Shown here one piece after another: positions 41,459 through 56,505 of a DNA stretch of 62,737 bases (position 1 is the stretch's first letter; every line of letters begins with the position of its first letter). The notes beneath the pieces were generated by a model. The model was not told the DNA's origin. It ran no database searches and saw only the letters and a program-made list of their open reading frames with translations. The position numbers were made by a program, and so were the translations under genes. Source of the DNA: Deltaproteobacteria bacterium (lineage in GTDB: Bacteria > Desulfobacterota > Syntrophia > Syntrophales > UBA2210); contig JAFGBH010000056.1 of the NCBI GenBank assembly GCA_016933215.1, positions 1 to 62,737 on the forward strand, in the 5' to 3' direction.

Positions 41459-42259
41459 ATGTTAGAAATAGCAGAATTTGAAGATATTACTCAGATCAGG
41501 ATGAGCAGGGTGTTGGATGGAGTGCCGATATACTGGGTGTCCGCCTATCTTGTGGACGGTCTTTTAATCGATACGGGTTGCAGTTATACGGCGGAGGAGC
41601 TGGCTTCCTATCTTAAGGATAGAAAAATTGATATGGCCGTCAACACTCATTTCCATGAGGACCACGTCGGGTGTAATTACCTTATAAACGATATGGTTGG
41701 CGGAGCCATATACGCCCATCCGGAATCTATCCCTCTGATCGGCAAAGAGGCCTTTCTGTACCCTTATCAGGAAACGGTGTGGGGATATCCGGTACCAACG
41801 GAGGTACAATCCATTCCAGAAGTGATAAAAACGAAACATTTTACTTTTGAGGTAATAGAAACGCCCGGTCATAGCGTGGGTCACGTAGCCCTCCTGGAAA
41901 AGAATAAAGGCTGGTGTTTTTCGGGCGACATATTTTCAAGAGAAACACTGAAGTTTATCAGGCCGGAAGAGGATATGGGCGTAACGATAGACTCGATGAA
42001 AAAACTCATGGACTATGATACCGAGAGACTGATACTCTTTACATCCGTGGGTAAGATAATCGAGGACGGTCGGGGCGCTTTCAAACGATGTATCAGCTAT
42101 CTTGAAGACCTTTCAGGAAAGGCAAAGAGGCTGAGAAATGATGGACAGACGATTGAGAAAATCATAGCGGAACTTTTTGGCGGTGAGCATGACTTTGTGG
42201 AGCTGACCAACGGCCAGTACACGACAGAGAATCTCGTGCGATCGGTCCTCAGTATGTAA
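41459..42259 (+). CDS. Metallo-beta-lactamase-fold hydrolase
   Basis: LLIDTG, THFHEDHVG, TPGHSVGH, FSGD. Confidence 0.88.
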   Translation: MLEIAEFEDITQIRMSRVLDGVPIYWVSAYLVDGLLIDTGCSYTAEELASYLKDRKIDMAVNTHFHEDHVGCNYLINDMVGGAIYAHPESIPLIGKEAFLYPYQETVWGYPVPTEVQSIPEVIKTKHFTFEVIETPGHSVGHVALLEKNKGWCFSGDIFSRETLKFIRPEEDMGVTIDSMKKLMDYDTERLILFTSVGKIIEDGRGAFKRCISYLEDLSGKAKRLRNDGQTIEKIIAELFGGEHDFVELTNGQYTTENLVRSVLSM

Positions 42260-42296
42260 CAATTGATCGAGAATGCTGCTTTTTTCTTGAGTTAGT

Positions 42297-42493
42297 TTGA
42301 ACTGAGAAGCGAGCGCAATCCCCGCTTTATGAGGCGGGGTTAGCGAACGAATACAAAATAAACACTTTCCTTAATCCCGACAATCGGGATAAGTGAGGTA
42401 ACAAATTTATTTTCTGCCAGAAAACACAGAAAATAAATCCTAACTTACTTAACAGTCGGAGATTCCCCGCAACTTCTTGCGGGGGAACTTCAA
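42297..42493 (+). mobile_element. Miniature IS200/IS605-like element, family A copy 3 (complete)
   Basis: TTGAA|CTGAGAAGCGAGCGCA-hairpin...ATCCCGA-CAA-TCGGGAT...ATTTATTTTCTG/CAGAAAATAAAT...CCCCGCAA-CTTC-TTGCGGGG-GAACTTCAA. Confidence 0.82.
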
Positions 42494-42522
42494 TGCTTAT
42501 AAATCCTAAGGGGGGAAATTCC

Positions 42523-43596
42523 ATGCCAAAGAAAATAAGTATTGTACTACTTCTGCTGTTACTCATACTGGTTTTGATCTTTGTTTTTAAAGAGACGCCC
42601 GTTAATTCCGTTCCCTACACGCCGCCTGCGGCACCTGATTTGGCCGGTATCCTTGCACCCAATAATCTTTTAAAAAATTCCGAGATTATTGCCGCGGGCA
42701 GGATAAACGGTCCCGAAGATGTGGCTGTCGATGAGAATGGGCGTTTATACGGGGGGACACACGACGGCGAGATTATTCGCATCTGGCCCGATGGAAAAAT
42801 TGAGACTTTTGCGGTAACCGATGGTCGTCCTCTTGGGCTCCACTTTGATGGGGAAGGAAATCTTATTGTATGTGATGCATACAAGGGGCTTCTTGCTATC
42901 GATAGAGAGGGGAATGTTACCATTCTTGCTCAATCGGCTGATGGCGTTCCCTTTAAATTTACCGATGATCTCGATATTGCGAGTGACGGTACCATCTATT
43001 TCTCCGACGCAAGCGATACCTTTGACCACGCTCATTATCTCTTCGATCTGGTGGAATCACGGCCTCATGGCAGACTGATGAGTTACGATCCTGCCGACGG
43101 TACGGTTCAAGTCCTGTTAAGCAATCTCTATTTTGCCAACGGTGTGGCCCTTTCGGAGAATGAAGATTTTGTCCTCGTGAACGAGACATACCGATACCGG
43201 ATCATCCGTTACTGGCTCAGGGGGCCGAAGGCGGGAACACGTGATATTTTCGCCGACAATCTGCCCGGGTTTCCCGACGGGATATCGGCGAACAGAAAGG
43301 GTACGTTCTGGTTGGCGCTCTTCACCGTTCGCAACCCCATTATGGACACAATTTACCCCTATCCCTTTCTCAAGACCCTTTTAGCAAAACTTCCGGCGTC
43401 GCTGTGGCCGAAACCGAAACCTTACGGTTTTGTACTGGCCTTCGATGAGGAGGGTAATATTATTAAAAATCTCCAGGAGCCAACGGGTAAATATCTTCGG
43501 GAAATTACCTCGGTTCAGGAACATGAAGGGTACCTCTATCTGGGGAGCCTCCATAACGACAGGATCGGCAGGTATAGACTGCCCAAAGCGAAATAA
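42523..43596 (+). CDS. SMP-30/gluconolactonase/strictosidine-synthase-like beta-propeller protein with N-terminal anchor
   Basis: GPEDV, GRPLGLHF, FTDDLDI..DG.IYFSDAS, FANGVALS, LPGFPDGI; likely ATG 42523. Confidence 0.88.
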   Translation: MPKKISIVLLLLLLILVLIFVFKETPVNSVPYTPPAAPDLAGILAPNNLLKNSEIIAAGRINGPEDVAVDENGRLYGGTHDGEIIRIWPDGKIETFAVTDGRPLGLHFDGEGNLIVCDAYKGLLAIDREGNVTILAQSADGVPFKFTDDLDIASDGTIYFSDASDTFDHAHYLFDLVESRPHGRLMSYDPADGTVQVLLSNLYFANGVALSENEDFVLVNETYRYRIIRYWLRGPKAGTRDIFADNLPGFPDGISANRKGTFWLALFTVRNPIMDTIYPYPFLKTLLAKLPASLWPKPKPYGFVLAFDEEGNIIKNLQEPTGKYLREITSVQEHEGYLYLGSLHNDRIGRYRLPKAK

Positions 43597-43609
43597 AGGA
43601 GGAACGTGT

Positions 43610-44503
43610 ATGTCAAGATTATTGAATATCCTCGGATGTAGCTATCCAATCATTCAGGGCCCCATTGGGGCAATGAACAGTCCTGAAATGGTGGCGGCAA
43701 TCTCTGAGGCGGGGGCATTTGGAATGCTGGCTCTGGGATTCACCCCTAATGCGGAAGAAGCTAAAAAACTGGTGGGAGCTGTGAGGAATCTGACGGATAA
43801 GCCCTTCGGTGCAAATCTTATGACAATGAATCCCGCAAACCCGGAGATTCTGAAAATTCTTGCGGAAGCAGGAGTAAAAACCGTAACGTCCTCGGCGGGT
43901 TCTGCGAAAAATCTTTACCCGGTCATTCATGAGATGGGGATGAAGGGGTTTCATGTTGTCCTCGCCCTTTCATATGCCCTAAAGGCCGAAGATGCCGGTG
44001 CCGATGGTATCGTAATATCCGGTTCGGAATCGGGAGGACTGCGCTCTGTAAAGCAGGAATCCTCGAATATGATACTTATTCCTATGGCGGTGGATAATGT
44101 AAAAGTGCCCGTGGTTGCGGCGGGAGGCATTGCCGATTCGCGCGGTTACAGGGCAGCACTCGCTTTGGGTGCCGAAGGTGTTCAGGTAGGCACCCGCTTT
44201 CTGATATCGGAGGAGAGTCCGGCACCAAAGGCATGGAAGGAAGCGATACTCAACTGCGCTGAAGGGAATACGGCGCTTTTGCCGCTGGGAAATATGATGA
44301 TGAGGGTTATTATGAACCCCAAACTCAAGGAGCAGATGAGCAATCCGGAAACGGATCTTATGAAGGAATACAATCTCATGAATGCACCCGAGGCATGGGG
44401 TACGGGAAACTTCGACCTTTTTCCCGCTGGCGGCGGGCAGGTGAGCGCCCTCATTCGCGAAATCAAACCGGTAAAGGAAATCATAGAGGAGATGGTGTCA
44501 TAG
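43610..44503 (+). CDS. Nitronate monooxygenase / FabK-like flavin oxidoreductase
   Basis: PIIQGP, ESGG, PVVAAGGIAD, LGAEGVQVGTRF; start ATG 43610 after AAGGAGG (ORF track over-extended to 43430). Confidence 0.88.
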   Translation: MSRLLNILGCSYPIIQGPIGAMNSPEMVAAISEAGAFGMLALGFTPNAEEAKKLVGAVRNLTDKPFGANLMTMNPANPEILKILAEAGVKTVTSSAGSAKNLYPVIHEMGMKGFHVVLALSYALKAEDAGADGIVISGSESGGLRSVKQESSNMILIPMAVDNVKVPVVAAGGIADSRGYRAALALGAEGVQVGTRFLISEESPAPKAWKEAILNCAEGNTALLPLGNMMMRVIMNPKLKEQMSNPETDLMKEYNLMNAPEAWGTGNFDLFPAGGGQVSALIREIKPVKEIIEEMVS

Positions 44504-44759
44504 CGATTACCATCCTGAAACAGGCGCGGGCATGCACAATGCCGCGCCACATCCGACCGCTGCATCGACAATTCTTTCAGATAAGTGGCGATAGCGAATA
44601 TTTCTGATACACCGCGTCTCATCTTCATGTCTCTTTTTGCATCCTGTCTTATATTAAACTATCAGTATATTTATAAGATATTGTATTATATTTAGTAAAA
44701 TAATGTAAGTAATTGTAAAAAATGTAATATTATATAGTGTAACCGTGATAAATAATTTA

Positions 44760-44800
44760 TTGACTTACTATAGATAGCAATATATTATACTGATGGTATA
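44760..44800 (+). promoter_or_regulatory. Candidate promoter and palindromic operator upstream of the TetR/GRE cluster
   Basis: TTGACT-N17-TATTAT, with TATAC-TGATG-GTATA (44786-44800) overlapping the -10/+1 region. Confidence 0.45.
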
Positions 44801-44855
44801 CATAATGACTGTGATTAATAGCTGGATTGTATCGTAGCTATAATGTGGGAGAGAG

Positions 44856-45512
44856 ATGACAGGGAAACAGGGTTTTAATAAGAAAATGAAACAGCTTGTG
44901 ATTACGCAGGCTGCGAAGGAATTATTTCTTGAACATGGGTACGGTACGATTACCGTCGATCGAATTGCTGAGAGGGCAGGGGTGACCAAGAGGACACTGT
45001 ATAGCCATTACCCGTCGAAACTGGCACTCTTTGTACATGTCTTCGATGATTATTTACAGCAGTTGCATACCGAGATGGTGGCGGTTCTCGATGAAGGCCA
45101 TAGACTTGACATATTACTGAGAAGACTCACTGCCACCCTCTTTGAATTTACCAAAAGGAATGAAAAATTTATGCGCCTTTTCTGGACCCTCGGTACCGAC
45201 GAGTTTGACGGTCTGATCCCCGAAGAACTGGTTAATCGTATCAAGATGTGGAACAGGGTCCTGATCGATGAGGTTGTGAAGGTGAGTGAAGAGCCTCAGA
45301 ACAGGGGACTCATGAAAGACTATGATCCTGAACTTCTCTTTCATCTGATGTCTGCCATCAATAAGGGTATATTTCTCCATACAAATAAATCTTATCGATT
45401 CAAGATCGCCTCGCTTGATCCTGAAGAACTTTACGGCCTGATGATAGATCTTGTCGAGAAGGGTCTCTTCGGAGAATCGGATCAAAAGCGGTATGTTTCT
45501 CCGCCGGGATAA
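44856..45512 (+). CDS. TetR/AcrR family transcriptional regulator
   Basis: AAKELFLEHGY..ITVDRIAERAGVTKRTLYSHYPSKLAL. Confidence 0.92.
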   Translation: MTGKQGFNKKMKQLVITQAAKELFLEHGYGTITVDRIAERAGVTKRTLYSHYPSKLALFVHVFDDYLQQLHTEMVAVLDEGHRLDILLRRLTATLFEFTKRNEKFMRLFWTLGTDEFDGLIPEELVNRIKMWNRVLIDEVVKVSEEPQNRGLMKDYDPELLFHLMSAINKGIFLHTNKSYRFKIASLDPEELYGLMIDLVEKGLFGESDQKRYVSPPG

Positions 45513-45544
45513 ACGTTGCTGGTTACAAAGGAGGGAACAGTACG

Positions 45545-46534
45545 ATGGATTTTGACGGAATAACACTGGTTACCGGTGCTGCCGGTTTCATGGGGAGCCA
45601 TCTTGTCGAATACCTGGCAAAGCTTGGGGTTCGTGTCAGGGCAACGGCGAGACCTCGAAAAGATATATCTTTCTTCAATAATCTGGGAGTGGAATATGTT
45701 GGAGCGGATCTAACGAAGCCGGAAACCATTCCACCCCTTTTTGAGGGGAATGTTGACAGGTTGTTTCACCTCGGTGCCGTCTGCAACTTTTCCACCCCCT
45801 ATGAAGAACTCTATCCGATAAATGTAAAGGGCGTGGAACTCATCACCAAACACGCCCTTGAAGCCAAAGTGAAACGCTATATCCATGTCGGTTCCACCAG
45901 CGTTTATGCACAGTATAACGGAACACCCTTTTCTGAGGATTATCGTCAGGACCCACCTAATTCCTACGGGAAAAGCAAGCGTGACGGTGAGAAGGTAATA
46001 CGGAAGCGGATTGGCGAAGGGCTTCCCACTATCATTACAAGGCCTTGTACCGTCTACGGCCCCCGGTGTACCGACGGGGCAGGCAAGGCCTTTTCGCGAC
46101 CCACATCGATAACGGCAATTCCGGGAAGCGGAAGGCAACTCCTTTCCAATGTGAGGGCAGAAGACGTTGCCGCTGCCGTGGAACACCTCTCTCATCTTGA
46201 TGAAGCCGTCGGTGAGGCCTACAATATTTCTGATAACAGCAATCCGACACTGGAAGAGGCGTTGACTCTCGCGTCAGAGGCGTTCGGAATGAAGGCGCCG
46301 AAAATTCATCTTCCGCTGGGAATCGTCAAGATCGCTGCCCGTGTCGATGGATTCGTATCGAAGATGAGGGGAAAGGTTCCCGATCTGGAATATGATGCCG
46401 TCAATTACCTCTATGACAATTATGTGGTGGACAACACAAAACTGAAAAAAACGGGGTATAATTTCATCTATCCCGATTTTCGAGAATCAATGAAGCAGAT
46501 GGGGAAATGGTACGCAAGTCAGGTATGTCAATGA
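45545..46534 (+). CDS. Extended SDR (NAD-dependent epimerase/dehydratase, 3beta-HSD-like)
   Basis: TGAAGFMG, FHLGA, STSVY, YGKSK, RPCTVYGP. Confidence 0.88.
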   Translation: MDFDGITLVTGAAGFMGSHLVEYLAKLGVRVRATARPRKDISFFNNLGVEYVGADLTKPETIPPLFEGNVDRLFHLGAVCNFSTPYEELYPINVKGVELITKHALEAKVKRYIHVGSTSVYAQYNGTPFSEDYRQDPPNSYGKSKRDGEKVIRKRIGEGLPTIITRPCTVYGPRCTDGAGKAFSRPTSITAIPGSGRQLLSNVRAEDVAAAVEHLSHLDEAVGEAYNISDNSNPTLEEALTLASEAFGMKAPKIHLPLGIVKIAARVDGFVSKMRGKVPDLEYDAVNYLYDNYVVDNTKLKKTGYNFIYPDFRESMKQMGKWYASQVCQ

Positions 46535-46600
46535 AGCTAATCTTTTCAAAGATGCACCCTTTCGTCATTGGAACGACTGGGTAAAAGGAGGGTCGATTCT

Positions 46601-47431
46601 ATGAAGAAATCAGTGGTCATTACCGGTCTGGCCCAGGGAATGGGCCGTGAGGTGGCGAAAATTGTCGCAAGTTCCGGATGGAATGTGGCGGGCTTTGACG
46701 TGGATGGCGAGGGGATTGCGTCTCTCGGGGAAGAGCTGAGATCGATAGGGGGCGACCACCTGCTTGAGATCATGGACATAACGGACCGGCCCGGAATTCT
46801 GGCCTTTCGTGATCGGGTTTTGGAAAAATTCGGCAGTGTCAATACGGTGCTCTCCAACGTGGGGATCGGATTTTTCGGACCCTTTGAGGAGGTGGACCTC
46901 GAAAAGGCTCTTAAGTGCCTCGAGATCAATGTAATAGGCGCTTCCGCCATATTTCAGGCATTTATCCCGTCGATGCGTGAGCAACGATACGGGAAACTTA
47001 TTGCCATGTCATCCCTCGTGGGGCAGGTACCCTTTCCCTTTGAATCCATTTATTCGGCAAGCAAGTTTGCTATCGAAGGGCTTGTCCTGTCGCTGCGATA
47101 CGAAGTGGAACCCTTCGGGATCAGTGTTGCCCTTGTCGAACCGGCTCAGGTTTCCACCACATTTGCCGCAAAGATTCATGTGCTTCCACCGGAGGGGTCT
47201 CCCTACAGGGAACGGGCCAGGCGCTTTATCGAGAGGGATGATGAACTGATAAAAACCGCTCCCAATCCTCTGCAGGCGTCGCAGAAGATCGCAAAGTTAA
47301 TACAGGCCGATAAAGTAAAGCTTCATAACCAGGTGGATTTCATGAGTACTTTTTTCCTCTTTCTGAACAAATTTCTTCCCCGGTCTATGAGGGATGCAAT
47401 CTTGCTGAATCATATGGATATTAAAGTTTAA
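46601..47431 (+). CDS. Short-chain dehydrogenase/reductase
   Basis: TGLAQGMG, NVGIG, YSASKFA, VEP; start ATG 46601 after AGGAGG. Confidence 0.9.
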   Translation: MKKSVVITGLAQGMGREVAKIVASSGWNVAGFDVDGEGIASLGEELRSIGGDHLLEIMDITDRPGILAFRDRVLEKFGSVNTVLSNVGIGFFGPFEEVDLEKALKCLEINVIGASAIFQAFIPSMREQRYGKLIAMSSLVGQVPFPFESIYSASKFAIEGLVLSLRYEVEPFGISVALVEPAQVSTTFAAKIHVLPPEGSPYRERARRFIERDDELIKTAPNPLQASQKIAKLIQADKVKLHNQVDFMSTFFLFLNKFLPRSMRDAILLNHMDIKV

Positions 47432-47478
47432 TGTAGTACAATACAGATTAATTATTTTTAAAACGGGGGAAAATGGTT

Positions 47479-47688
47479 TTGAACTGAGCAGCGAGCGCAT
47501 ATCCCGTTGATTGCAGCAGGGTATGCGAGCGAATAAGAAATAACATTTTCCTTAATCCCGACAATCGGGATAAGTGAGTTAACGAATTTATTTTCTGCCA
47601 GAAAACACAGAAAATAAATCCTAACTTTCTAAACAATCGGAGATTCCACGCAACTGTCGGAGTTATAAGGGATTGCGGGAAGCTTCAA
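47479..47688 (+). mobile_element. Miniature IS200/IS605-like element, family A copy 4 (complete, longest)
   Basis: TTGAA|CTGAGCAGCGAGCGCA...GCGGGAAGCTTCAA, all three modules present. Confidence 0.82.
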
Positions 47689-47699
47689 AGGAGATCGTG

Positions 47700-50084
47700 A
47701 TGTCAACACTTGAAAGACCTGTCGAAATTGTTACTGATTCTCGAGTCACGAGACTCAGGAATCGTATTATAGATGCACCGCAGGAGGTCTGCGTGGAAAG
47801 GGCCCGGTATCTGACACGGTCGATGTCAAAAAACTGGGACCTGCATCCGCTTACCCGCATAAGCATGGCCCTGGAGGATATACTCGATAATATTACCGTT
47901 ACCATAAGGGACGACGAGTTCATCGTCGGGTGCAGAACAAGCAAACTCAAAGGGGCACCCCTTTTCCCCGAAGGAAAATCGCGCTGGATCGAAGGGGATG
48001 TAGATACCTTTGATACACGGGTCTATCAGCGGGCCCTCATAACGGAGGAGGAAAAGCGGGAGCTTCTTGAGGAGATTCTTCCCTTCTGGGAGGGGCGAAC
48101 AATAGAGGAGCGTCTTTATGAGTCCATGCCCGATGATATCGAGGCGGACATGGATAAGTATGTCTTTCTCATGGCCCTTCAGATTACCTATGGAATCGGT
48201 CATTTTACGATGGATCATCCGAGACTCCTCGCATCGGGCCTGAGAGGGATCATTGAGGATGCCGAAAAACGCTCCAATTCACTTTCCCCGCAGGAGCGTG
48301 AAGGAGAGAAGAGGCTTTTCTATGACACCGTCATGCGCTCTCTCCATGCCTCGATCCGTTTTGCCCATCGCTATGCCACACTTGCAGAATCGATGGCAGA
48401 AAATGAGATTGATACCGAGCGTGCGGAAGAATTAAGGAGAATCGCTCGTATATGCACCCGTGTTCCGGAATACCCCGCCGAGACATTTGAGGAGGCCATA
48501 CAGAGCGTCTATTTCATTCACCTTATCGCTCAGATTGAATCGGGAGGGAATTCCATTTCTCTGGGCCGTATCGACCAGATCCTCCATCCCTATTATAAGG
48601 CGGATCTGAATGCGGGGAGAATCACCCCGGATCGGGCACGGGAACTGATGGCCATGCTCTTCATCAAGGTGAATGAAATATGGAATGTTCTTGAAGAGGC
48701 TTTTATCCCCGGTGGCGAGGGGACAGAGGGAAAGACAACACAGAACGTGACCGTGGGCGGTATCGGTAAAGATGGAGAAGATGCAACCAATGAACTGAGC
48801 TATATAGGTCTTGATGCCTTTGCCGATGTCAGGACTGTACAGCCCGATTTCGGTGTTCGTCTCAGCTCAAAGGCTCCCGATAATTTCTTCCTGAGGGCTG
48901 TGGAGTATACAAAAGACGGCGTGCCGATGCATTTTTTCAATGACGATAGTATTGTTGAGGCTCTGATGAACGGGGGACATTCCATTGAAGATGCGAGAAA
49001 TTATGGCGTTGTTGGTTGTCTTGAGCCCAATGCCCAGGGAAAGACCTTCGGTTCTACCTTTGCCGTGCAGATAAACGGCATTAAATGTGTTGAGTTTGCT
49101 CTCAGCAACGGTATCGACAATACCTTCGGATATCAGTCGGGGATAGAAAGCGGAGAGGTTGAATCCTTTTCTTCCTTTGAAGATGTGTGGAATGCCTATT
49201 GCGCGCAGATGTCCTATTTTATAGGGCAGGTCGTCAGGGGAATGGATGTCCTTGATGGGATTATTGCGAATCAATTGCCGTCGCCGCTCGCCTCCGCTAT
49301 GATCGAAGGACCGCTGGAAAAGGGTTTCGATCTCACAAAGGGAGGCGCCGTCTATAATTCAACGGGCGTCCAGTATATCGGATTCGGCAATGTTGTGGAC
49401 AGTCTCTATGCCATAAAAAAAGCCGTTTTTGAAGACGGTACCGTTTTGCTCCCCGATCTCGCCGCGTGGCTTTCTGACGACTGGGATGGTGTCGAGGATA
49501 AACGGTCCTATTTCCTGAATAAAATACCAAAATACGGCAACGATATCGACGACGTGGATGAGATGGCTAAAAAGGTTCTCAATCATTTCTGTGATGAGCT
49601 GAAACAATATACGAATTACCGGGGAGGCGCCTTCTGGCCGGGCGTATTTTCCGTGGGATTTCATCTCGCCTTCGGTTCCTTTACGGCAGCAACACCCGAT
49701 GGCAGGTACTCGGGAGATGTTCTCGGGAATGGTCTCACACCGACGACCGGGAATGCCCTCACGGGTCCCACTGCGGTAATGAATTCGGTGACGAAAATCC
49801 CCCTTACACGACTTTATAACGGTGCCAATCTCAATATGAGATTCTCCGGCAAGAGGATCGGTGCAGAAAAGCTTATGGCTCTTATGAAGGCCTATTTCGA
49901 TCGCGGTGGAATCCAGGTTCAGTACAACATGATAGACTCGGAGATCTTACAGGATGCGAAAGTCAATCCGGAGAGACATAGGGATCTGGTCATAAGGATA
50001 AGCGGATATTCGACGCTCTTTACCGGTTTAACGGAAACCGCGCAGGATGAGATTATCAGCCGCACAGAATACGGACGACTGTAG
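47700..50084 (+). CDS. Glycyl radical enzyme, single-Cys non-PFL type, reaction unknown
   Basis: C-terminal LVIRISGYS glycyl-radical loop; GVVGCLEP thiyl loop; SISLGRIDQ, TAATPDGR; start ATG 47700 after AAGGAG. Confidence 0.93.
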   Translation: MSTLERPVEIVTDSRVTRLRNRIIDAPQEVCVERARYLTRSMSKNWDLHPLTRISMALEDILDNITVTIRDDEFIVGCRTSKLKGAPLFPEGKSRWIEGDVDTFDTRVYQRALITEEEKRELLEEILPFWEGRTIEERLYESMPDDIEADMDKYVFLMALQITYGIGHFTMDHPRLLASGLRGIIEDAEKRSNSLSPQEREGEKRLFYDTVMRSLHASIRFAHRYATLAESMAENEIDTERAEELRRIARICTRVPEYPAETFEEAIQSVYFIHLIAQIESGGNSISLGRIDQILHPYYKADLNAGRITPDRARELMAMLFIKVNEIWNVLEEAFIPGGEGTEGKTTQNVTVGGIGKDGEDATNELSYIGLDAFADVRTVQPDFGVRLSSKAPDNFFLRAVEYTKDGVPMHFFNDDSIVEALMNGGHSIEDARNYGVVGCLEPNAQGKTFGSTFAVQINGIKCVEFALSNGIDNTFGYQSGIESGEVESFSSFEDVWNAYCAQMSYFIGQVVRGMDVLDGIIANQLPSPLASAMIEGPLEKGFDLTKGGAVYNSTGVQYIGFGNVVDSLYAIKKAVFEDGTVLLPDLAAWLSDDWDGVEDKRSYFLNKIPKYGNDIDDVDEMAKKVLNHFCDELKQYTNYRGGAFWPGVFSVGFHLAFGSFTAATPDGRYSGDVLGNGLTPTTGNALTGPTAVMNSVTKIPLTRLYNGANLNMRFSGKRIGAEKLMALMKAYFDRGGIQVQYNMIDSEILQDAKVNPERHRDLVIRISGYSTLFTGLTETAQDEIISRTEYGRL

Positions 50085-50126
50085 CTGACCTGGAAGAGGG
50101 AGTGAAGTGACTATGGGAGGTATCGG

Positions 50127-51062
50127 ATGAGCAAGGTTATGCCGATGAAAGAGGCGGTACAACGGTATGTTATTGATGGTGATTTTCTTTTTATCGGTGG
50201 CTATATATGCAGAACCCCCTTTGCCGCTGTCCACGAGATTATCCGTCAGAAAAAAAGAGATCTGACAATAACCAGGAGCAATGCCGCCGACGACTTTGAT
50301 ATGATGATCGGTGCAGGTGTTGTCAAGCGCTTTATCGGCACCTTTCTTTCCCTCGGTCTTTACGGCCTCGGCCGCTGCTATCGGCGTTCAATCGAAAAGG
50401 AAATACCTCACAAAATCGAGTTAGAGGAATATACAAACCTCTCACTCCCCATGATGCTCATGGCAGGTTCCATGGGAATGCCCTTCGTTCCGGTGAAGGA
50501 TATGGCCGGGTCAGATCTCTTAAATGTAAAATCCTTTATGGGGGAGGATAAGTACAAGGTTATCGATTCTCCTTTCGATGGAAGCCCCACCGTTTTGGTG
50601 CCCGCGCTCAATCCCGACGTGGCGATCATTCATGTTCAGCAGGCCGATGAGATGGGAAATGCCCAGATCTGGGGAATTGGGGGTGATTGCAAGGTCGGAG
50701 CCAATGCCGCAAAGAAGGTAATTGTGAGTTGCGAGCGGATAGTCTCAAGAGAGGTAATCGGGAAGGATCCGTCACGGACTATTGTTCCGGACTTTAAAGT
50801 GGCAGCGGTGGTAGAGGAGCCCTTTGGCGCCCATCCCGGATATACGCCGGGATTCTACGATGTGGACTTTTCCTTTGGTTCTCTCTATCAGCAGGCTTCC
50901 AATACGGTCGAGGGATTTGAGGAATTTCTGAATGAGTGGGTCTTTGATGTGGAAGACAGAACTGCCTATGTCGGACATTACATAGAACGCTTCGGCTATC
51001 CGACCTTTAAAAACCTTGAGGCGGCTTTTGATTTTGGATATCCCGTCAGTTACGCATATTAG
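50127..51062 (+). CDS. Family I CoA-transferase subunit A (GctA-like)
   Basis: PFAAVHEIIRQ, AGSMGMPF, PALNPDVAIIHVQQADEMGN, PFGAHP. Confidence 0.88.
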   Translation: MSKVMPMKEAVQRYVIDGDFLFIGGYICRTPFAAVHEIIRQKKRDLTITRSNAADDFDMMIGAGVVKRFIGTFLSLGLYGLGRCYRRSIEKEIPHKIELEEYTNLSLPMMLMAGSMGMPFVPVKDMAGSDLLNVKSFMGEDKYKVIDSPFDGSPTVLVPALNPDVAIIHVQQADEMGNAQIWGIGGDCKVGANAAKKVIVSCERIVSREVIGKDPSRTIVPDFKVAAVVEEPFGAHPGYTPGFYDVDFSFGSLYQQASNTVEGFEEFLNEWVFDVEDRTAYVGHYIERFGYPTFKNLEAAFDFGYPVSYAY

Positions 51063-51140
51063 ATCTACTTTGCGTTATGAAGGGTTTCATTTTCATAGCA
51101 ATTGAAACTGAAAACCACGCTGTTTGAGGGAGAGATTTGT

Positions 51141-51941
51141 ATGCACACCCATCCTGACGATTATATAAAGCCTGAGCTGATGGCCTGCTGTGGTGCCAGG
51201 GAAATAACAGACGGAAATATCGTTATCGTGGGAACGGGCTTTCCCACAATGTCCGCCAACATAGCGAAATATACTAACGCGCCCAATGCTACTCTCATGC
51301 AGGAATCGGGAGTTTACGATGCAAGACCTGTGAGACCGGCGCTTTCCGTTGGCGATCCCTGTCTTAATCCAGGCGCTGCCATGATAGGCGGGCTGGTCGA
51401 TGTGATGGGGATGTTTCTGCAGTCGGGCTGGGTTGATGTAGGTTTTCTCTCGGGAAGCCAGGTAGATAAATTCGGGAATATCAATACGACGGTCATTGGC
51501 GATTATGAGAAACCGACGAGTCGGCTTCCCGGAAGCGGGGGGGCAAATCCGATCGGTTCGCTTGCGAAAAAGATTCTCATCATTGCCCTACACGACAAAA
51601 GGCGGCTATCCGAACGTGTCGATTTCATTACAACGCCGGGATATATCGATGGCCCCGGCTCGAGAGAGAAACGTGGACTGCCCGCCGGTACGGGCCCGGG
51701 GGTGATCATTACGAATAAGGCGGTATTGAGATTCGATGACGATACAAAAGAGGCCTATCTTGCAACCTATCACCCTGACAGTTCAGTGGATGAGGTGGTG
51801 AGCCTTACACCGTGGGATCTGAAAGTATCAGATGACGTCCATGAAACGGAGCCGCCGAGAGAAGAGGAACTGAGAGTCGTGCGTGAGATTCTCGATCCCT
51901 TCGGAATGATTAAAATATACGAAGGTCGGGGCTATGTATGA
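51141..51941 (+). CDS. Family I CoA-transferase subunit B (GctB-like)
   Basis: VGTGFP, MQESG (putative catalytic Glu), QVDKFGNINTT, LPGSGGA; likely ATG 51141. Confidence 0.88.
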   Translation: MHTHPDDYIKPELMACCGAREITDGNIVIVGTGFPTMSANIAKYTNAPNATLMQESGVYDARPVRPALSVGDPCLNPGAAMIGGLVDVMGMFLQSGWVDVGFLSGSQVDKFGNINTTVIGDYEKPTSRLPGSGGANPIGSLAKKILIIALHDKRRLSERVDFITTPGYIDGPGSREKRGLPAGTGPGVIITNKAVLRFDDDTKEAYLATYHPDSSVDEVVSLTPWDLKVSDDVHETEPPREEELRVVREILDPFGMIKIYEGRGYV

Positions 51942-51990
51942 TCATCTAAGGGGTTGTGAGTTGTAGGACAGGTTTTATTTCGTCATTTCC

Positions 51991-52041
51991 TTGACCGGGA
52001 GCGCACCCGCAAGCCTCGCCCTGTGGGCGTGGAGCTTCACA
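51991..52041 (+). repeat. 51-bp dispersed repeat, family B copy 2
   Basis: 46/51 identical to 41376-41426; just upstream of the MmgE/PrpD RBS. Confidence 0.8.
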
Positions 52042-52056
52042 GAAATAAGGGGGAAT

Positions 52057-53424
52057 ATGAATCACTCAAGATTGCTCGCGGAATTTTGCTCACAGATTTC
52101 ATTTGATAACCTCCCTGAAGAGGTTGTTTATAAGACAAAACTCTGCATACTCGATTGTATCGCCAATATCTATGGATCACGGGAACTCGAAGCCGTAAAA
52201 CATGTGGCCGATTATATCCGCTCGCAGCAGGGTGCTCTCCAGGCATCGGCCCTGGGATGGAATTTCGAAACGACCGTCAATGATGCAGCCTTTATAAACG
52301 GCACTGCCGCAGAGGCGATCGAGGCACAGGACGGGCTTCGTTTCGGCGGCAATCATCCGGGGACAGCGGTAATTCCCGCTGCCTTCGCCGTAGCCGAGCA
52401 TCTCGGACTTGGTGGCAGGGAGATCGTTGAGGCAGTCGTTGCCGGCTATGAGGCGGCGAACAGGCCTGCCGCGGCTATGCATCCATGGCATACACTCTCG
52501 GGATTTCTTCCCACGGGAACATGCGGGACATTCGGTGCTGCAACGGCAGCCGCAAAATTATACCGTTTTGACAGCAATCGTATGCTGAATGCCCTGGGTA
52601 ATGCAGGGTATTTGCTACCCCTTTCAATGGCCGAACATTTAATGGGAGGGTATACGATAAAGATAGTCCAGGGTGGTCAGGCGGCAAGCGCTGGTATCAG
52701 GGCGGCTGGTCTTGCAGGATCGGGTATCACAGGAGCTCCCTATGTTCTTGAAGGTTCCGAATTAAACGGAGGTTTTACGAAGATTACAACTAATGTGGAA
52801 CCGAACATGGATAAAATAATCGAGGGATTGGGCGAGCACTTTACCATAATGGATGTTTATTTCAAGCCCTATACCTCGTGCCGCCATACACACGGAGCAA
52901 TTCAGGCCACCCTTGAGATCGTGAAAAGAGAGAAGGTTTCCCCCGCGGATATCGAGAAGGTGGAAGTCTATACATACGGAATCGCCGTCATCGCGGTAGG
53001 GAAGGGCGTAAAGGACAACGACACCTTTGTATCGGCACAGTTTTCCATACCCTACTGTGTTGCCGCGTGTCTGACCGATGGAGAATTCGGTCCACAGCAG
53101 ATGAAGGAGGCACGAATCGAAGACCCCGGTGTTATCGAACTGTCGAGAAAGGTTCAGGTATTGATGGACGATGATCTGAATAATATCTATCCCGATATGA
53201 CATCGAGCAGGGTGAAAATATTTTTGAAAGATGGAAGAAAGCTGGTTCAGCAGATTGATATTCCGAAAGGTGATCCGAGGGATCCGATGGATGAGAAGGA
53301 GATCTCCCAAAAAGTCCGATATTTTGCAGGAGACAAGAGCGGAGGCCGGGTGAATAAGGTGATCGGCATGATACTTGATATTGAAAATATGGCAAATATC
53401 AAAGAACTTGCTCGATTAATCTAA
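52057..53424 (+). CDS. MmgE/PrpD family protein
   Basis: AAFINGTAAEAIEAQDG, HPGTAVIPA, FKPYTSCRHTH, AQFSIPY, PKGDPRDPM; start ATG 52057 (the ORF-track extension runs through the repeat). Confidence 0.9.
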   Translation: MNHSRLLAEFCSQISFDNLPEEVVYKTKLCILDCIANIYGSRELEAVKHVADYIRSQQGALQASALGWNFETTVNDAAFINGTAAEAIEAQDGLRFGGNHPGTAVIPAAFAVAEHLGLGGREIVEAVVAGYEAANRPAAAMHPWHTLSGFLPTGTCGTFGAATAAAKLYRFDSNRMLNALGNAGYLLPLSMAEHLMGGYTIKIVQGGQAASAGIRAAGLAGSGITGAPYVLEGSELNGGFTKITTNVEPNMDKIIEGLGEHFTIMDVYFKPYTSCRHTHGAIQATLEIVKREKVSPADIEKVEVYTYGIAVIAVGKGVKDNDTFVSAQFSIPYCVAACLTDGEFGPQQMKEARIEDPGVIELSRKVQVLMDDDLNNIYPDMTSSRVKIFLKDGRKLVQQIDIPKGDPRDPMDEKEISQKVRYFAGDKSGGRVNKVIGMILDIENMANIKELARLI

Positions 53425-53447
53425 AGGAAAGTATGAAAGGAGCGCGA

Positions 53448-54614
53448 ATGGACTTCAGTTTCAGTAGTGAACAGCAGATGTTGATTGAGACGTTGCGGAC
53501 GATGGGAAAACGGGAAAATTTCAAGGAACTCGCGGCACAGATAGACAGTACGGGGGAATTTCCCCACCACCTGATGAAAAAGTATGCCGAGATGGGACTG
53601 CTGGGTATGACGTTATCTTCAGAATACGGAGGAGGGGGAAGGCCGGCAATAGAGGCAATAATTGCAATCGAAGAGCTGGCAAAGTTCAGTCCCATGATAG
53701 CAGCTGCGGTATTTGAATCAAATGTCGGGCCGGTAAGGGTCATTGATATCTTCGGAACGGAAGAGCAGAAGAAATCGATAATTCCGGGGGTCTGCAGGGG
53801 CGAGCTTAGTGTCTCCGTGAGCATGACTGAACCCGAGGCAGGCTCCGATCTTACGTCACTGTCGACGACTGCCATAGAGCATGGCGATACGTATATATTA
53901 AATGGCCGGAAAGCTTTTATTACCGGCGGCGGCTATGCGAGCCACTATTTGGTCTATTCGAGATTTGATAATATTCCGGGCTATAAGGGTATCGGTGGAC
54001 TGATCGTGGAGAAAGACATGCCTGGTTTTACCTTTGGGAAACAGGAGGAATATATGGGGCTCAGAGGAATGCCCTCCTGTGATCTTATATTCGAGGATGT
54101 TGTAGTTCCGAAAGAAAATGTTGTGGTAAAGCCCGGTGATTTCAGAAATCTCATGTTGACCTTTGACATAGAAAGGTGTGGAAATGCCGCCATGTGTCTC
54201 GGTGTGGCAGGGGGTGCACTGGAGGAAGCAAAGATATACGCTCAACAGCGAGAGGCCTTTGGAAGACCCATTTGCGAGTTTCAGGCCGTTCAGTTTCCCG
54301 TCGTTGATATGGCCATGAAACTGGATGCTGCTCGACTTCTCGTTTACAGGGCCGCAACAGGGGCCGGCCAGGGATTGCCCTCCATATATGAATCGGCAAT
54401 GGCGAAGTGTTTCGCAAACGAGATGGTGGTTGACGTGACAAATGCCGCAATGGAGGTTTACGGTGGCTACGGATACAGCAAAGAATTTCCCGCCGAGAGA
54501 ATGCTTCGCGACGGAAGGGCATGGAGGGTCGCCGGGGGTACCATAAACATGCTCAGGATTACCATGGCGAGTCTCATCTTCGGAAGGAGATTCGATCAGC
54601 GCAAGGGAAAATAG
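53448..54614 (+). CDS. Acyl-CoA dehydrogenase
   Basis: MTEPEAGSD, LNGRKAFIT, AQQREAFGRPICEFQAVQ, GGYGYSKEFPAERMLRD. Confidence 0.93.
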   Translation: MDFSFSSEQQMLIETLRTMGKRENFKELAAQIDSTGEFPHHLMKKYAEMGLLGMTLSSEYGGGGRPAIEAIIAIEELAKFSPMIAAAVFESNVGPVRVIDIFGTEEQKKSIIPGVCRGELSVSVSMTEPEAGSDLTSLSTTAIEHGDTYILNGRKAFITGGGYASHYLVYSRFDNIPGYKGIGGLIVEKDMPGFTFGKQEEYMGLRGMPSCDLIFEDVVVPKENVVVKPGDFRNLMLTFDIERCGNAAMCLGVAGGALEEAKIYAQQREAFGRPICEFQAVQFPVVDMAMKLDAARLLVYRAATGAGQGLPSIYESAMAKCFANEMVVDVTNAAMEVYGGYGYSKEFPAERMLRDGRAWRVAGGTINMLRITMASLIFGRRFDQRKGK

Positions 54615-54665
54615 AAACCATTATTAAAAGACTTCAAATATTTTACAAAACGAGGAGGGACAGTA

Positions 54666-55106
54666 ATGGGAACATATTACAGAGACGCCGATCACCTTTT
54701 TGAGATCTATGGATATTTTTTGGATCGAGTTCTTACCGATGAGAAGATCGGGCCCAAGATGGCGAAGTCAAATATTATTATCAAGTTCATCTATACAGAT
54801 CCTGACTGTGAGATCACTATCGACCTGAAAAACCCGCCACAGAAAGAGGGGTACTACGGAAGTTATTATCTGGGGCCCTGTGATTTGAAGGAAGATGTCT
54901 GGTCCAAGCAGGCAGCTGATTTTTCCCATAGCTTCTGGCATGGATTTGAAAATCCGATAGCCGCTGTCACAAAGAGAAAGGTAAAACAGGGCGGCAAAAT
55001 AACGGCAATGATGAAACTTCTCCCCGTGGTCAAACCGGCATTCAAAGAATTTCCCTCGGCCCTTGCGGAGATGGGATACGGTGATCTTATTATTATAAAG
55101 AAATGA
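54666..55106 (+). CDS. SCP2 sterol/lipid-binding-domain-like protein
   Basis: A.DFSHSFWHG..NPIAAVTKRKVKQGGKITAMMKLLP resembles the SCP2 C-terminal signature. Confidence 0.65.
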   Translation: MGTYYRDADHLFEIYGYFLDRVLTDEKIGPKMAKSNIIIKFIYTDPDCEITIDLKNPPQKEGYYGSYYLGPCDLKEDVWSKQAADFSHSFWHGFENPIAAVTKRKVKQGGKITAMMKLLPVVKPAFKEFPSALAEMGYGDLIIIKK

Positions 55107-55153
55107 GGATTTTTGTATCAATATCGATCGACGAATAAAAAAAGGAGGGACTA

Positions 55154-55591
55154 ATGAGCGAGAGAAAAAACGAGCACCTTATCGTGAGAGAACCGATTAA
55201 CGTCAACAAGCTTCCCGATCATAAACTGAGCGACGTGATACCCTTTCCGGTGCTGATGTGCAAGGATCTGGTGCCCGAAGCACAGGCATGGGCTCTTTAC
55301 ATGTTCATAAAAGAGATAACGCAGGAAATGGTTGATCTTATGGATGCCGTAGGAAAGGCAACTCCACACCGGCATGACTTTGATGAAATGTATCTGATGA
55401 TAGGGGAAGAAAAGGCCATCACCTTTGAGGTCATGCTTGACGACGAATTCTACGAGGTTGCAACGCCGGGAGCGGTGTATATTCCGAAAGGACTTCCTCA
55501 TGCCATACGGCCGGTGAAGGCAACGGTGGGCCTTTCGGGTGGTCTCATTCCCGTGTGTCTGAACGGGGAATATGTTACACTACCGGTGTAA
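55154..55591 (+). CDS. Cupin-fold protein
   Basis: PHRHDFDEMY (H-x-H-x3-E) and AVYIPKGLPH cupin motifs. Confidence 0.75.
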   Translation: MSERKNEHLIVREPINVNKLPDHKLSDVIPFPVLMCKDLVPEAQAWALYMFIKEITQEMVDLMDAVGKATPHRHDFDEMYLMIGEEKAITFEVMLDDEFYEVATPGAVYIPKGLPHAIRPVKATVGLSGGLIPVCLNGEYVTLPV

Positions 55592-55656
55592 TTATTTATG
55601 AGCCAAACTATGGTATATGGTTGTTGATGAAATAATCGATGAAAAATGGGGTGGGG

Positions 55657-56505
55657 ATGATGAGTCAGAATATATCGACGAAGGAAGGCATGTTTGAAGC
55701 GGCCGACGGCTTTCAGTTATTTGAGAGATGGTGGGTGCCGGAGGGCGAGACGAAAGCGGTTGTTGTCATAGTCCACGGCCTGGCAGAACATAGCGGACGG
55801 TATTCACATGTGGCAAAACGACTGAACGAAGATGGATATGCCGTGTATACCTTCGATTTACGACTGCACGGAAGATCGGGCGGGGCAAAGGCCTTTGTGA
55901 AATCATTTGATGACTACCTTGCTGACCTCGACGTATTTCTTGCGAGGGTGCGTGAAAAAGAGCCTCAAAAACCACTGTTCCTTCTGGGGCACAGTATGGG
56001 CGGAACAATCTCAGCCCTTTTTGCAATAACAAGAAAGCCCGACATACGAGGCCTTCTGCTGAGCGCAGCGGCCCTGAAAATGGGTGATGACATCTCGCCC
56101 ATTCTTATAAGTTTATCGGGGATTATAGGAAGCATTCTGCCGAAACTGCCCACCGTCAAGCTTGACAGTGGCGCCATCTCGAAAGACCCTGAAGTAATAA
56201 AGAAGTATGATACCGATCCTCTCAACTATCGGGGAGGGACTCCGGCTCGAACGGGCGCAGAAATTGTGAGAGCCACACGAATTATTCAGGAGCGAATGGA
56301 AGAAATTAATGTGCCGATCCTTATCATGCACGGGACGGCAGACCGTCTCGCGAATATCGAGGGGAGCAAAGAGCTCAATGAACGTGCCCGTTCCGCTGAT
56401 AAGACACTGAAGTTATATGAGGGCCTCTATCATGAAATCCTCAATGAGCCGGAGAAAGAGGAGGTAATGGACGATATCATCGAATGGATGAATTCGCACT
56501 GCTGA
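55657..56505 (+). CDS. Lysophospholipase / monoacylglycerol lipase-like alpha/beta hydrolase
   Basis: VHGLAEHSGRY, DLRLHGRS, GHSMGG, HGTADRL, YHEILNE; start 55657 or 55660 (ORF track 55639). Confidence 0.9.
   Translation: MMSQNISTKEGMFEAADGFQLFERWWVPEGETKAVVVIVHGLAEHSGRYSHVAKRLNEDGYAVYTFDLRLHGRSGGAKAFVKSFDDYLADLDVFLARVREKEPQKPLFLLGHSMGGTISALFAITRKPDIRGLLLSAAALKMGDDISPILISLSGIIGSILPKLPTVKLDSGAISKDPEVIKKYDTDPLNYRGGTPARTGAEIVRATRIIQERMEEINVPILIMHGTADRLANIEGSKELNERARSADKTLKLYEGLYHEILNEPEKEEVMDDIIEWMNSHC

Follow-up and report, generated by a model that had tools for sequence, protein, structure and literature searches.

Introduction

The substrates known for the eliminases among the glycyl radical enzymes (GREs) are small and polar, namely glycerol, propanediol, choline, hydroxyprolines, isethionate, 2,3-dihydroxypropanesulfonate (DHPS) and anhydro-sugar phosphates (PMC13450708). 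The 1,2-eliminase and isomerase classes of GREs are defined by a Cys-x-Glu motif, the Glu of which is the general base (PMC13450708). Here we describe a gene cassette centred on a GRE and located in contig JAFGBH010000056.1 of a Deltaproteobacteria bacterium of the Syntrophales; the whole stretch analysed, 62,737 nucleotides, is referred to as the window. The cassette, at positions 45545-55106, would act by radical 1,2-elimination on an amphiphilic or hydrophobic compound ending in HO-C-C-X, most likely a vicinal diol, and would lead the product into acyl-CoA metabolism, a reading to which we assign, from sequence, a probability of about 0.55.

The closest described enzymes are the glycerol dehydratase of Clostridium butyricum (1r8w and 1r9d) and the propanediol dehydratases 5i2a and 9rco, the latter from a GRM3 system (PMC12756279). 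They share with the window GRE the fold, the length, the Gly loop, the Cys-x-Glu loop and the equivalents of His164 and Ser282. However, in the window GRE the pocket residues are replaced, there is neither a microcompartment nor an adjacent activase, and the partners are an SCP2-fold protein, two short-chain dehydrogenases/reductases (SDRs), a CoA-transferase or ligase and an acyl-CoA dehydrogenase (ACAD). Elimination of a group other than hydroxyl beside a secondary carbinol is known from two other GREs with Cys-x-Glu, YbiW/PflD, which opens the ring ether of 1,5-anhydrohexitol-6-phosphate, and the DHPS sulfolyase HpsG, which releases sulfite (PMC13450708). Both score 321-465 bits against the window GRE and share its Cys-x-Glu, but they bind polar, anionic substrates through Arg and Gln residues. 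A comparable set of residues is not apparent in the window GRE, and the operon context differs.

Two further systems recall the partners of the GRE. In the methylsuccinate module of pseudomonads an MmgE/PrpD isomerase feeds the enantiomer preferred by the CoA-transferase, and a methylsuccinyl-CoA dehydrogenase follows (PMC12290011); no other published case was found in which a PrpD-family protein works together with a CoA-transferase and an ACAD. Its transferase is Ict and not of the GctAB type, it contains no GRE, SCP2 protein or SDRs, and, unlike its isomerase, the PrpD-like protein of the window has lost the conserved His and the DFDD motif. Peroxisomal MFE-2/SCPx likewise combine an SDR of the HSD17B type, an SCP2 domain and the dehydrogenation of bulky acyl-CoA, and the SCP-2L domain of MFE-2 is the best fold match of p146, the 146-amino-acid (aa) SCP2-fold protein of the window. 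These proteins are eukaryotic, fused and oxygen-linked, and the likeness to the cassette is one of logic, not of orthology. No description of the GRE family or of the cassette was found in full-text searches of the literature or in the June 2026 review of GREs, and no enzyme listed in that review (PMC13450708) has the sequence pattern or the gene context of the window GRE.

The glycyl radical enzyme

The GRE gene starts at the ATG at 47700, located behind an AAGGAG site, and not at the TTG at 47673 that opens the longer reading frame (47673-50084). From the ATG the protein has 794 aa, against 793 in its homologues. It contains the domains PF02901 (PFL-like, 652 bits) and PF01228 (Gly_radical, 77.5 bits) and passes only the cut-off of TIGR01774, the broad PFL2/glycerol-dehydratase subfamily (722 bits), being far below every equivalog cut-off of NCBIfam (HpfG, HpsG, PflD, HypD, CutC and the decarboxylases). 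The closest solved relatives are the glycerol dehydratase of C. butyricum (553 bits), 9rco (522 bits) and the diol dehydratase of Roseburia (520 bits); the archaeal PFL2 protein 2f3o reaches 495 bits, the benzylsuccinate and (1-methylalkyl)succinate synthases (BSS and MASS; TutD, MasD) 256-265 bits and PFL 134 bits, while comparisons within the own family give about 1280-1790 bits. By its sequence, the GRE falls into none of the characterised groups of enzymes and is an uncharacterised branch of PFL2. The first-pass annotation of the region had pointed to an undescribed pathway, in agreement with scores below all the equivalogs and with the differences at several active-site residues.

The Gly loop reads RISGYS, and its Gly769 is invariant in 121 family members, as are Cys440 and Glu442 of the Cys loop, GCLEP, which aligns with GCVEP of glycerol dehydratase. 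The alignment also shows that C433/E435 and the diol-binding H164 and S282 of glycerol dehydratase are kept, H164 being the proposed donor of a proton to the leaving OH of glycerol (PMC13450708). Since the best-scoring solved relatives are glycerol and propanediol dehydratases and these residues are shared with them, a radical 1,2-elimination beside a carbinol is the most likely reaction. The pocket, in contrast, differs from that of glycerol dehydratase at six aligned sites comprising eight residues: Asn replaces H281, Thr Y339, Ser-Thr-Phe the W445-H446-D447 stretch, Trp Q636, Phe Y640 and His N645. The replacements are mostly apolar, invariant or nearly so in the 121 members, and identical in the two architectures of the cassette described below. 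Of the residues with which glycerol dehydratase binds its substrate (H164, H281/S282, Y339, D447 and Y640), the GRE has only H164 and S282; D447, Y339 and Y640 are the residues that we take to hold the third hydroxyl of glycerol in 1r9d.

That the GRE simply dehydrates glycerol or 1,2-propanediol, like the known enzymes, and has unrelated neighbours is hardly credible. Its top PDB matches are indeed such enzymes, but at 520-553 bits against about 1300 within its own family, and the residues that differ at the six sites are invariant in that family. Furthermore, no microcompartment, 1,3-propanediol dehydrogenase or PduP/L/W set accompanies it, and its neighbourhood is collinear in about 90 loci.

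A fumarate-adding GRE would make or handle a substituted succinate, and the PrpD-like protein, the CoA-transferase and the ACAD would then be an X-succinate epimerase, its CoA-transferase and an X-succinyl-CoA dehydrogenase, as in the breakdown of methylsuccinate or benzylsuccinate. The related archaeal protein 2f3o has been suggested as an alkylsuccinate synthase (PMC13450708). The window GRE, however, carries the eliminase Cys-x-Glu and the acid-base His, and its scores with BSS and MASS are far below those with the dehydratases. No open reading frames (ORFs) for the small beta and gamma subunits are present, and the position after the Cys loop, where we take the fumarate-binding Arg of BSS to stand, is not Arg, the aligned stretch being F-A (...STFAV...). 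With the evidence from the partner genes given below, we consider this explanation very unlikely.

A conserved cassette in two architectures

Related loci were collected by exact-protein look-ups of GRE and PrpD homologues, by a scan of genome contigs with a single GRE, which gave 3 loci, and by an alignment-based metagenome scan, in which 212 relatives were confirmed and 80 kept for the locus set. The pooled set comprises 89 related loci, the gene content of which was mapped by tblastn with reference proteins. A word-indexed search with the GRE yielded 962 proteins at E<=1e-50; the best-scoring 120 of these are 68-97% identical to the query. The source names of the hits include Thermodesulfobacteriota, Desulfomonilia, Syntrophales, Desulfobacterales, Dehalococcoidia, Geothermincolia, Spirochaetota and one metagenome-assembled genome (MAG) of Chitinophagales, and the cassette itself occurs in Desulfobacterota, Chloroflexota, Spirochaetota, Actinomycetota and other MAGs, among them uncultured anaerobes of sediment or groundwater.

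The unit conserved over the 89 loci consists of eight genes, coding for the extended SDR, the classical SDR, the GRE, the A and B subunits of the CoA-transferase, the PrpD-like protein, the ACAD and the SCP2-fold protein, and every one of them is 57-93% identical to the window copy across related loci. The two SDR genes are located immediately 5' of the GRE gene in 52 of the 59 loci with sufficient flank. Downstream, two architectures are found. In architecture A (54 of 72 loci) the GRE is followed by the two transferase subunits, the PrpD-like protein and the ACAD, usually then by the SCP2-fold protein; of the 32 type A loci that reach 5.2 kb or more downstream, every one has both transferase subunits, the PrpD-like protein and the ACAD, and 27 have the SCP2 gene. 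In architecture B (17 of 72) the GRE is followed, sometimes after a paraoxonase (PON)/arylesterase gene, by the SCP2 gene, an aldehyde:ferredoxin oxidoreductase (AFOR) or aldehyde dehydrogenase (ALDH), a transporter of the major facilitator superfamily (MFS), the ACAD and an AMP-forming CoA ligase of the fatty-acyl type. The SCP2 gene is present in 10 of the 10 long type B loci. The ligase stands in place of the CoA-transferase and the PrpD-like protein, which occur in no type B locus; the PrpD-like gene is found only alongside the CoA-transferase.

In the first-pass annotation fourteen consecutive genes had been treated as one system, and the reasoning towards a glycerolipid leaned partly on the lipase-like hydrolase, the metallo-beta-lactamase (MBL)-fold hydrolase, the cupin, the propeller and the nitronate monooxygenase (NMO)-like enzyme. 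The neighbourhood is indeed conserved in other genomes, but as the eight-gene cassette only: the fourteen genes are not one evolutionary unit, those from the extended SDR through the SCP2-fold protein being conserved elsewhere and the rest, on which that reasoning drew, being lineage-specific. By tblastn against the 89 loci the MBL hydrolase, the cupin-like protein and the Hydrolase_4 protein were found in the window only, and L028, the GRE of which is 92% identical to that of the window, is the only other locus with the propeller and NMO genes. An equivalence of the window propeller with the PON/arylesterase of 9 other loci was rejected, there being no significant similarity. The regulator varies as well. 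Among 50 loci it is of the PadR family in 30 and of the TetR family in 3, the window and its two closest relatives, L028 and L027 (GRE 87% identical), and the window TetR, which has weak NCBIfam matches to the FasR, FadR and KstR types, occupies the position held by PadR in most other loci.

Genes for rve-type transposases adjoin the cassette in four metagenome loci (L038, L068, L083 and L084). Transposases beside the cassette, together with identities of 66-90% across phyla, suggest horizontal movement, and the cassette at 45545-55106 is probably shared horizontally. Two departures from the usual gene order or integrity were observed. In a delta-proteobacterial MAG (L015:9900-12350) the GRE gene lies in several frames between intact neighbours, owing to assembly error or decay. 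In L020, L030, L032-L034, L036, L066 and L093 an SCP2 gene and one or two genes for Peripla_BP_6 (LivJ-type) proteins replace PadR 5' of the SDRs, an arrangement suggestive of substrate import through an ABC-type system in these lineages.

Proposed activation of the acid and desaturation of its thioester

The two subunits of the CoA-transferase match those of GctAB (CoAT-A with 1poi_A, 198 bits; CoAT-B with 1poi_B, 198.6 bits), and CoAT-A is 77-89% identical in type A loci. The ESG motif of CoAT-B aligns with ESG of GctB, and the catalytic Glu, presumably the nucleophile Glu54 of GctB, is kept; its retention indicates a real transferase and not a lyase of the IpdAB or AibAB type. Because the ligase of architecture B replaces the transferase and the PrpD-like protein while the GRE pocket and the ACAD remain unchanged, the step served by these genes would be the activation of a free acid.

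The ORF of the PrpD-like protein starts at 51991, and homologues of 455 aa place the start near 52057. The protein matches PF03972 (179 bits) and PF19305 (137 bits), and its closest PDB match is iminodisuccinate (IDS) epimerase (121 bits). Its DFDD motif is changed to EAQD and the His of the W-H-P/N motif to Leu; the HP His and both Lys equivalents align. In human cis-aconitate decarboxylase (CAD) the dicarboxylate-binding set is, we assume, H103, H159, K207 and K272.

A substituted succinate, the very unlikely product considered above, would accord with the 1,4-dicarboxylate backbone of all known MmgE/PrpD substrates and with GctAB being a dicarboxylate transferase, and PrpD isomerase, CoA-transferase and ACAD together reproduce the methylsuccinate route (PMC12290011). 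Nevertheless, the two altered PrpD motifs are taken as dicarboxylate-site motifs of the solved members, and 17 loci have neither the PrpD-like protein nor the CoA-transferase and carry a fatty-acyl-type ligase instead, with the GRE pocket unchanged.

The ACAD contains the three domains PF02771, PF02770 and PF00441, and its closest PDB matches are the bifurcating butyryl-CoA dehydrogenases (Bcd) 4l1f and 5ol2. Its VAGGT stretch aligns with IYEGT of Bcd, so that the canonical Glu of YEGT is absent, and FDIER aligns with LDGGR, so that a Glu is gained on helix G, at what we take to be the position of the base in isovaleryl-CoA and long-chain acyl-CoA dehydrogenases (IVD and LCAD). This pattern is conserved in both architectures. 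The catalytic base would have been relocated to helix G, and in IVD and LCAD such an arrangement is linked to branched or bulky substrates. From the set of CoA and beta-oxidation enzymes that had been reported for the region, the ACAD and the CoA-transferase stand; the core holds no hydratase and no thiolase.

The SCP2-fold protein and the SDRs

No Pfam match was obtained for p146. An AF2 model built with eight orthologues has a pLDDT of 76, and its top Foldseek matches are all SCP2 or SCP-2L proteins, with a target-normalised TM-score (TMt) up to 0.73 (for 1ikt, E=1.4e-5 and TMt 0.72); distant relatives match PF02036 directly. The model predicts p146 to be an SCP2-fold, lipid-carrier-like protein. 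Its relatives are mostly stand-alone proteins of ~140 aa, and five of them (P0278, P0310, P0380, P0346 and P0349) are fused to the C-terminus of an iron-dependent alcohol dehydrogenase (Fe-ADH) or to the N-terminus of a thiamine diphosphate (ThDP)-dependent E1 dehydrogenase. The fusions hint that this SCP2 subfamily serves redox enzymes acting on alcohols or aldehydes with poorly soluble substrates.

The classical SDR, 58-90% identical in related loci, has 17beta-hydroxysteroid dehydrogenase (HSD) 1 as its best PDB match. The extended SDR resembles 3beta-HSD, and its best NCBIfam matches, HpnA, thioester reductase, SdmB and OleD, are all below cut-off. Within NCBIfam the specific neighbour of the classical SDR is 3-ketodihydrosphingosine reductase (136 bits), and one might think of a GRE that cleaves a C-N bond in a sphingoid base or another lipophilic amino alcohol, releasing ammonia and a long-chain carbonyl compound. 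The pocket aromatics could stabilise a cation, and the SCP2-fold protein and the long-chain ligase point to a lipid. But the SDR match is far under its cut-off of 400 bits, the Asp that pairs with the ammonium group in CutC is His in the GRE, and no nitrogen-handling gene is conserved, so that a C-N elimination seems highly improbable. A quaternary-amine (carnitine-like) substrate was rejected too: there are no BCCT or trimethylamine (TMA) genes, and the partners point to lipids.

A hydrophobic substrate, as put forward in the first-pass annotation, is supported by the SCP2-fold partner, the apolar pocket of the GRE, the 17beta- and 3beta-HSD-like SDRs, the ACAD with its putative base at the IVD/LCAD position, the fatty-acyl-type ligase and the class-3-like ALDH described next. 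The earlier interpretation is thereby upheld for the uncharacterised GRE and the hydrophobic substrate, and not for the extent of the gene system or for the beta-oxidation set. It did not include the exchange of the CoA-transferase and the PrpD-like protein for a ligase, the recurrence of aldehyde oxidisers or the presence of an activase within the operon of some genomes.

Aldehyde oxidisers, transporters and the activase

Accessory genes were counted in the 30 loci with at least 8 kb of downstream sequence. AFOR occurs in 12 and ALDH in 5, either of them in 15; MFS transporters are present in 9, PON/arylesterase in 6, the AMP ligase in 4 and an activase in 2. The best match of the ALDH is the benzaldehyde dehydrogenase MdlD, of class 3, whose members act on fatty or aromatic aldehydes. 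The AMP ligase best matches the long-chain-fatty-acid-CoA ligase of NCBIfam (418 bits), with steroid-24-oyl-CoA synthetase lower, and the MFS proteins are closest to carriers of conjugated bile salts and of lactate (monocarboxylate).

Both activases lie after the SCP2 gene. In L025, from Syntrophales, the activase matches TIGR02494 with 326 bits, and an Fe-ADH and an ALDH are inserted between the SDRs and the GRE; in L014 it is a radical-SAM protein with Fer4 domains, and the locus also holds two crotonases, an ALDH and a 4HBT thioesterase. The host genome of the window (2.69 Mb in 102 contigs) encodes five PFL2-type GREs, none reaching an equivalog cut-off, and three activases, each adjoining another GRE and none within the window. 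These three share just 37-44% identity with the activase in the operon of L025 and were rejected as the cognate one. The GRE may be activated in trans, or the activase gene may have been missed.

The other GREs of the genome are on C54, C70, C95 and C38 (loci L010-L013, L001-L003). The C54 gene adjoins one for a GlpC-like Fe-S subunit, the C70 protein has an N-terminal extension of ~190 aa, and the C38 gene is split by an in-frame TAA into 610 and 230 aa.

Proposed pathway

In the pathway that we propose, a radical-SAM activase, encoded outside the cassette here, would activate the GRE, and the thiyl radical of Cys440 would abstract the carbinol hydrogen. Glu442 would serve as the base and His168 as the acid in the elimination of the neighbouring OH or, alternatively, of an alkoxy group. 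The chemistry would be that of the B12-independent glycerol and propanediol dehydratases in a rebuilt pocket, largely apolar on the side of the third carbon. The recurrence of aldehyde oxidisers indicates that an aldehyde precedes the acid, and the route would thus run from the GRE through aldehyde, acid and acyl-CoA to enoyl-CoA. The hydrophobic aldehyde would be oxidised to the acid by a tungsten-type AFOR or a class-3-like ALDH in many genomes and by a housekeeping enzyme here, and the acid would be converted to its CoA thioester by the GctAB-like transferase or, in architecture B, by the AMP-forming fatty-acyl-type ligase. The ACAD would desaturate the thioester to the enoyl-CoA, and general beta-oxidation would follow. 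The SCP2-fold protein may shuttle the poorly soluble intermediates. The SDRs would act on hydroxyls, interconverting stereoisomers or the ketol form of the diol, or oxidising a released alcohol. By analogy with the methylsuccinate isomerase of Pseudomonas, the PrpD-like protein is probably an epimerase or isomerase of the free acid that serves a stereoselective transferase, and this role is the weakest link of the model. Expression would be controlled by TetR, and by PadR elsewhere.

The leaving group could instead be an alkoxide. The GRE would then be an ether lyase, abstracting the carbinol hydrogen from a 1-O-alkyl- or aryl-glycerol or from a terminal 2-alkoxyethanol group, and the hydrophobic alcohol set free would be oxidised to the acid by the SDRs or an Fe-ADH and by AFOR or ALDH, then esterified with CoA and desaturated. 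Such a scheme has a job for every universal gene and best explains the two SDRs directly before the GRE. The residues for C1-OH and C2-OH are kept in the pocket, and the positions that we take to contact C3-OH are changed, two of the three to Phe. The fusion of SCP2 relatives to Fe-ADHs, the long-chain type of the ligase and the class-3-like ALDH agree with it, and accessories of the ester-hydrolase type recur across lineages (PON in 9 loci, Hydrolase_4 and MBL in the window). Cleavage of an ether by a GRE also has a precedent (PMC13450708). On the other hand, alkoxide is a poor leaving group, the small product, hydroxyacetone or acetaldehyde, needs enzymes of its own, of which none is conserved, and the role of the PrpD-like protein and the CoA-transferase is left unexplained. 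Moreover, the active sites of GREs lie buried, and no eliminase among them is known to act on a substrate the size of a lipid. We regard an ether lyase as possible but doubtful. Rather unlikely is the more specific proposal that the GRE and the SCP2-fold protein form the first anaerobic system cleaving ether lipids. Its targets would be the alkyl- or isoprenyl-glycerol ethers of bacterial and archaeal lipids, attacked from their glycerol end, and the alcohol would be oxidised and sent to beta-oxidation.

Several points weigh against the preferred elimination from a vicinal diol followed by oxidation and CoA activation. The pocket was mapped by sequence alignment to glycerol dehydratase and not on coordinates. 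The core cassette contains no dedicated aldehyde oxidiser, and there is none near it in the window; nor was a cognate GRE activase found in the host genome. Transferases of the GctAB type are known for short C3-C6 (di)carboxylates, not for lipophilic acids, and to our knowledge the characterised MmgE/PrpD enzymes without exception use 1,4-dicarboxylates, compounds that are not part of the model. Finally, the likeness of the MFS proteins to carriers of monocarboxylates and bile salts may indicate that the substrate has a carboxylate when it is taken up.

The window and its further genes

The fourteen consecutive plus-strand genes at 41459-56505 are all present as first annotated (Table 1), according to Pfam and NCBIfam, the SCP2 call being one by fold. 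The cupin call is weaker: a Cupin_2 match exists, with E=0.034, and BLASTP relates the protein to a Cupin_2 protein in L021 with E=4e-5. The N-terminus of the propeller protein is a hydrophobic membrane anchor (ISIVLLLLLLILVLIFVF). The NMO-like enzyme reaches 200 bits against the FabK model of NCBIfam, the cut-off of which is 453. Its longest ORF overlaps the 3' end of the propeller gene by 167 bases (43430-43596), and the Pfam match begins at residue 62; translation probably begins beyond the stop of the propeller gene.

Table 1. Genes of the cluster, with positions in the window
Feature	Positions	Strand	Basis of the call	Place in the cluster
MBL-fold hydrolase	41459-42259	+	Pfam Lactamase_B, 72.7 bits	peripheral; homologue in 0/89 related loci
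Six-bladed propeller, strictosidine-synthase/SGL lactonase type	42493-43596	+	Pfam Str_synth, SGL, SSL_N	peripheral
NMO/FabK-like FMN enzyme	43430-44503 (longest ORF)	+	Pfam NMO, 168 bits	peripheral
TetR-family regulator	44856-45512	+	Pfam TetR_N	
Extended SDR (3beta-HSD/epimerase/NAD_binding_4 type)	45545-46534	+	Pfam	core
Classical SDR	46568-47431	+	Pfam adh_short, 140 bits	core
GRE (PFL-like + Gly_radical)	47700-50084	+	PFL2/glycerol-dehydratase superfamily	core
CoA-transferase subunit A, class I, GctA-like	50127-51062	+	CoA_trans	core
CoA-transferase subunit B, class I, GctB-like	51102-51941	+	CoA_trans	core
MmgE/PrpD-like protein, divergent	51991-53424	+	Pfam MmgE_PrpD_N, MmgE_PrpD_C	core
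ACAD	53433-54614	+	Pfam ACAD N, M and C domains	core
SCP2-fold lipid-carrier-like protein, 146 aa (p146)	54666-55106	+	predicted fold	core
Cupin-like small protein	55154-55591	+	weak call	peripheral
Alpha/beta hydrolase, Hydrolase_4 (lysophospholipase/monoacylglycerol lipase) type	55639-56505	+	Pfam, 272 bits	peripheral

A Pfam scan of 38.6-61.6 kb showed that the flanking genes encode subunits of a 2-oxoacid:ferredoxin oxidoreductase, an OmpA/VWA protein, RmuC, a 23S-IVS protein and FeoB. The lack of genes for microcompartment shells, pta/ack/focA or small bssBC-like subunits, pointed out earlier, was borne out within these 38.6-61.6 kb, the range covered by profiles, and the cluster itself leaves no space for shell genes or for ORFs of bssBC-like small subunits. 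An Rfam scan of 40.5-57.5 kb gave no riboswitch and no other RNA. The scan for promoters and terminators was not above chance overall, and within it promoter-like sites were seen at 44760-44844. The spacer between the classical SDR and the GRE (47432-47699, 268 bp) is AT-rich, ends with a strong AAGGAG site and has no Rfam match; it could hold an internal promoter or operator.

Significance

New in this work are the census of 89 loci, the two interchangeable back ends of the cassette, the recurrent aldehyde oxidisers and the in-operon activases, together with the relocated base predicted for the ACAD, the altered motifs of the PrpD-like protein and the fusions of Fe-ADH with SCP2. The GRE family is as widespread as several characterised eliminase families, and with its two back ends, and the activases found within the operons of L014 and L025, the system lends itself to direct testing. 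Identification of the substrate would add a reaction class to the GREs and a route of anaerobic carbon turnover, for which ether lipids, long-chain or aryl diols and ethers of the ethoxylate type could be candidates. If the reading as an ether-lipid-cleaving system were true, this would be the first GRE eliminase acting on a lipid-sized substrate, and it would explain the turnover of ether lipids in anoxic sediments.

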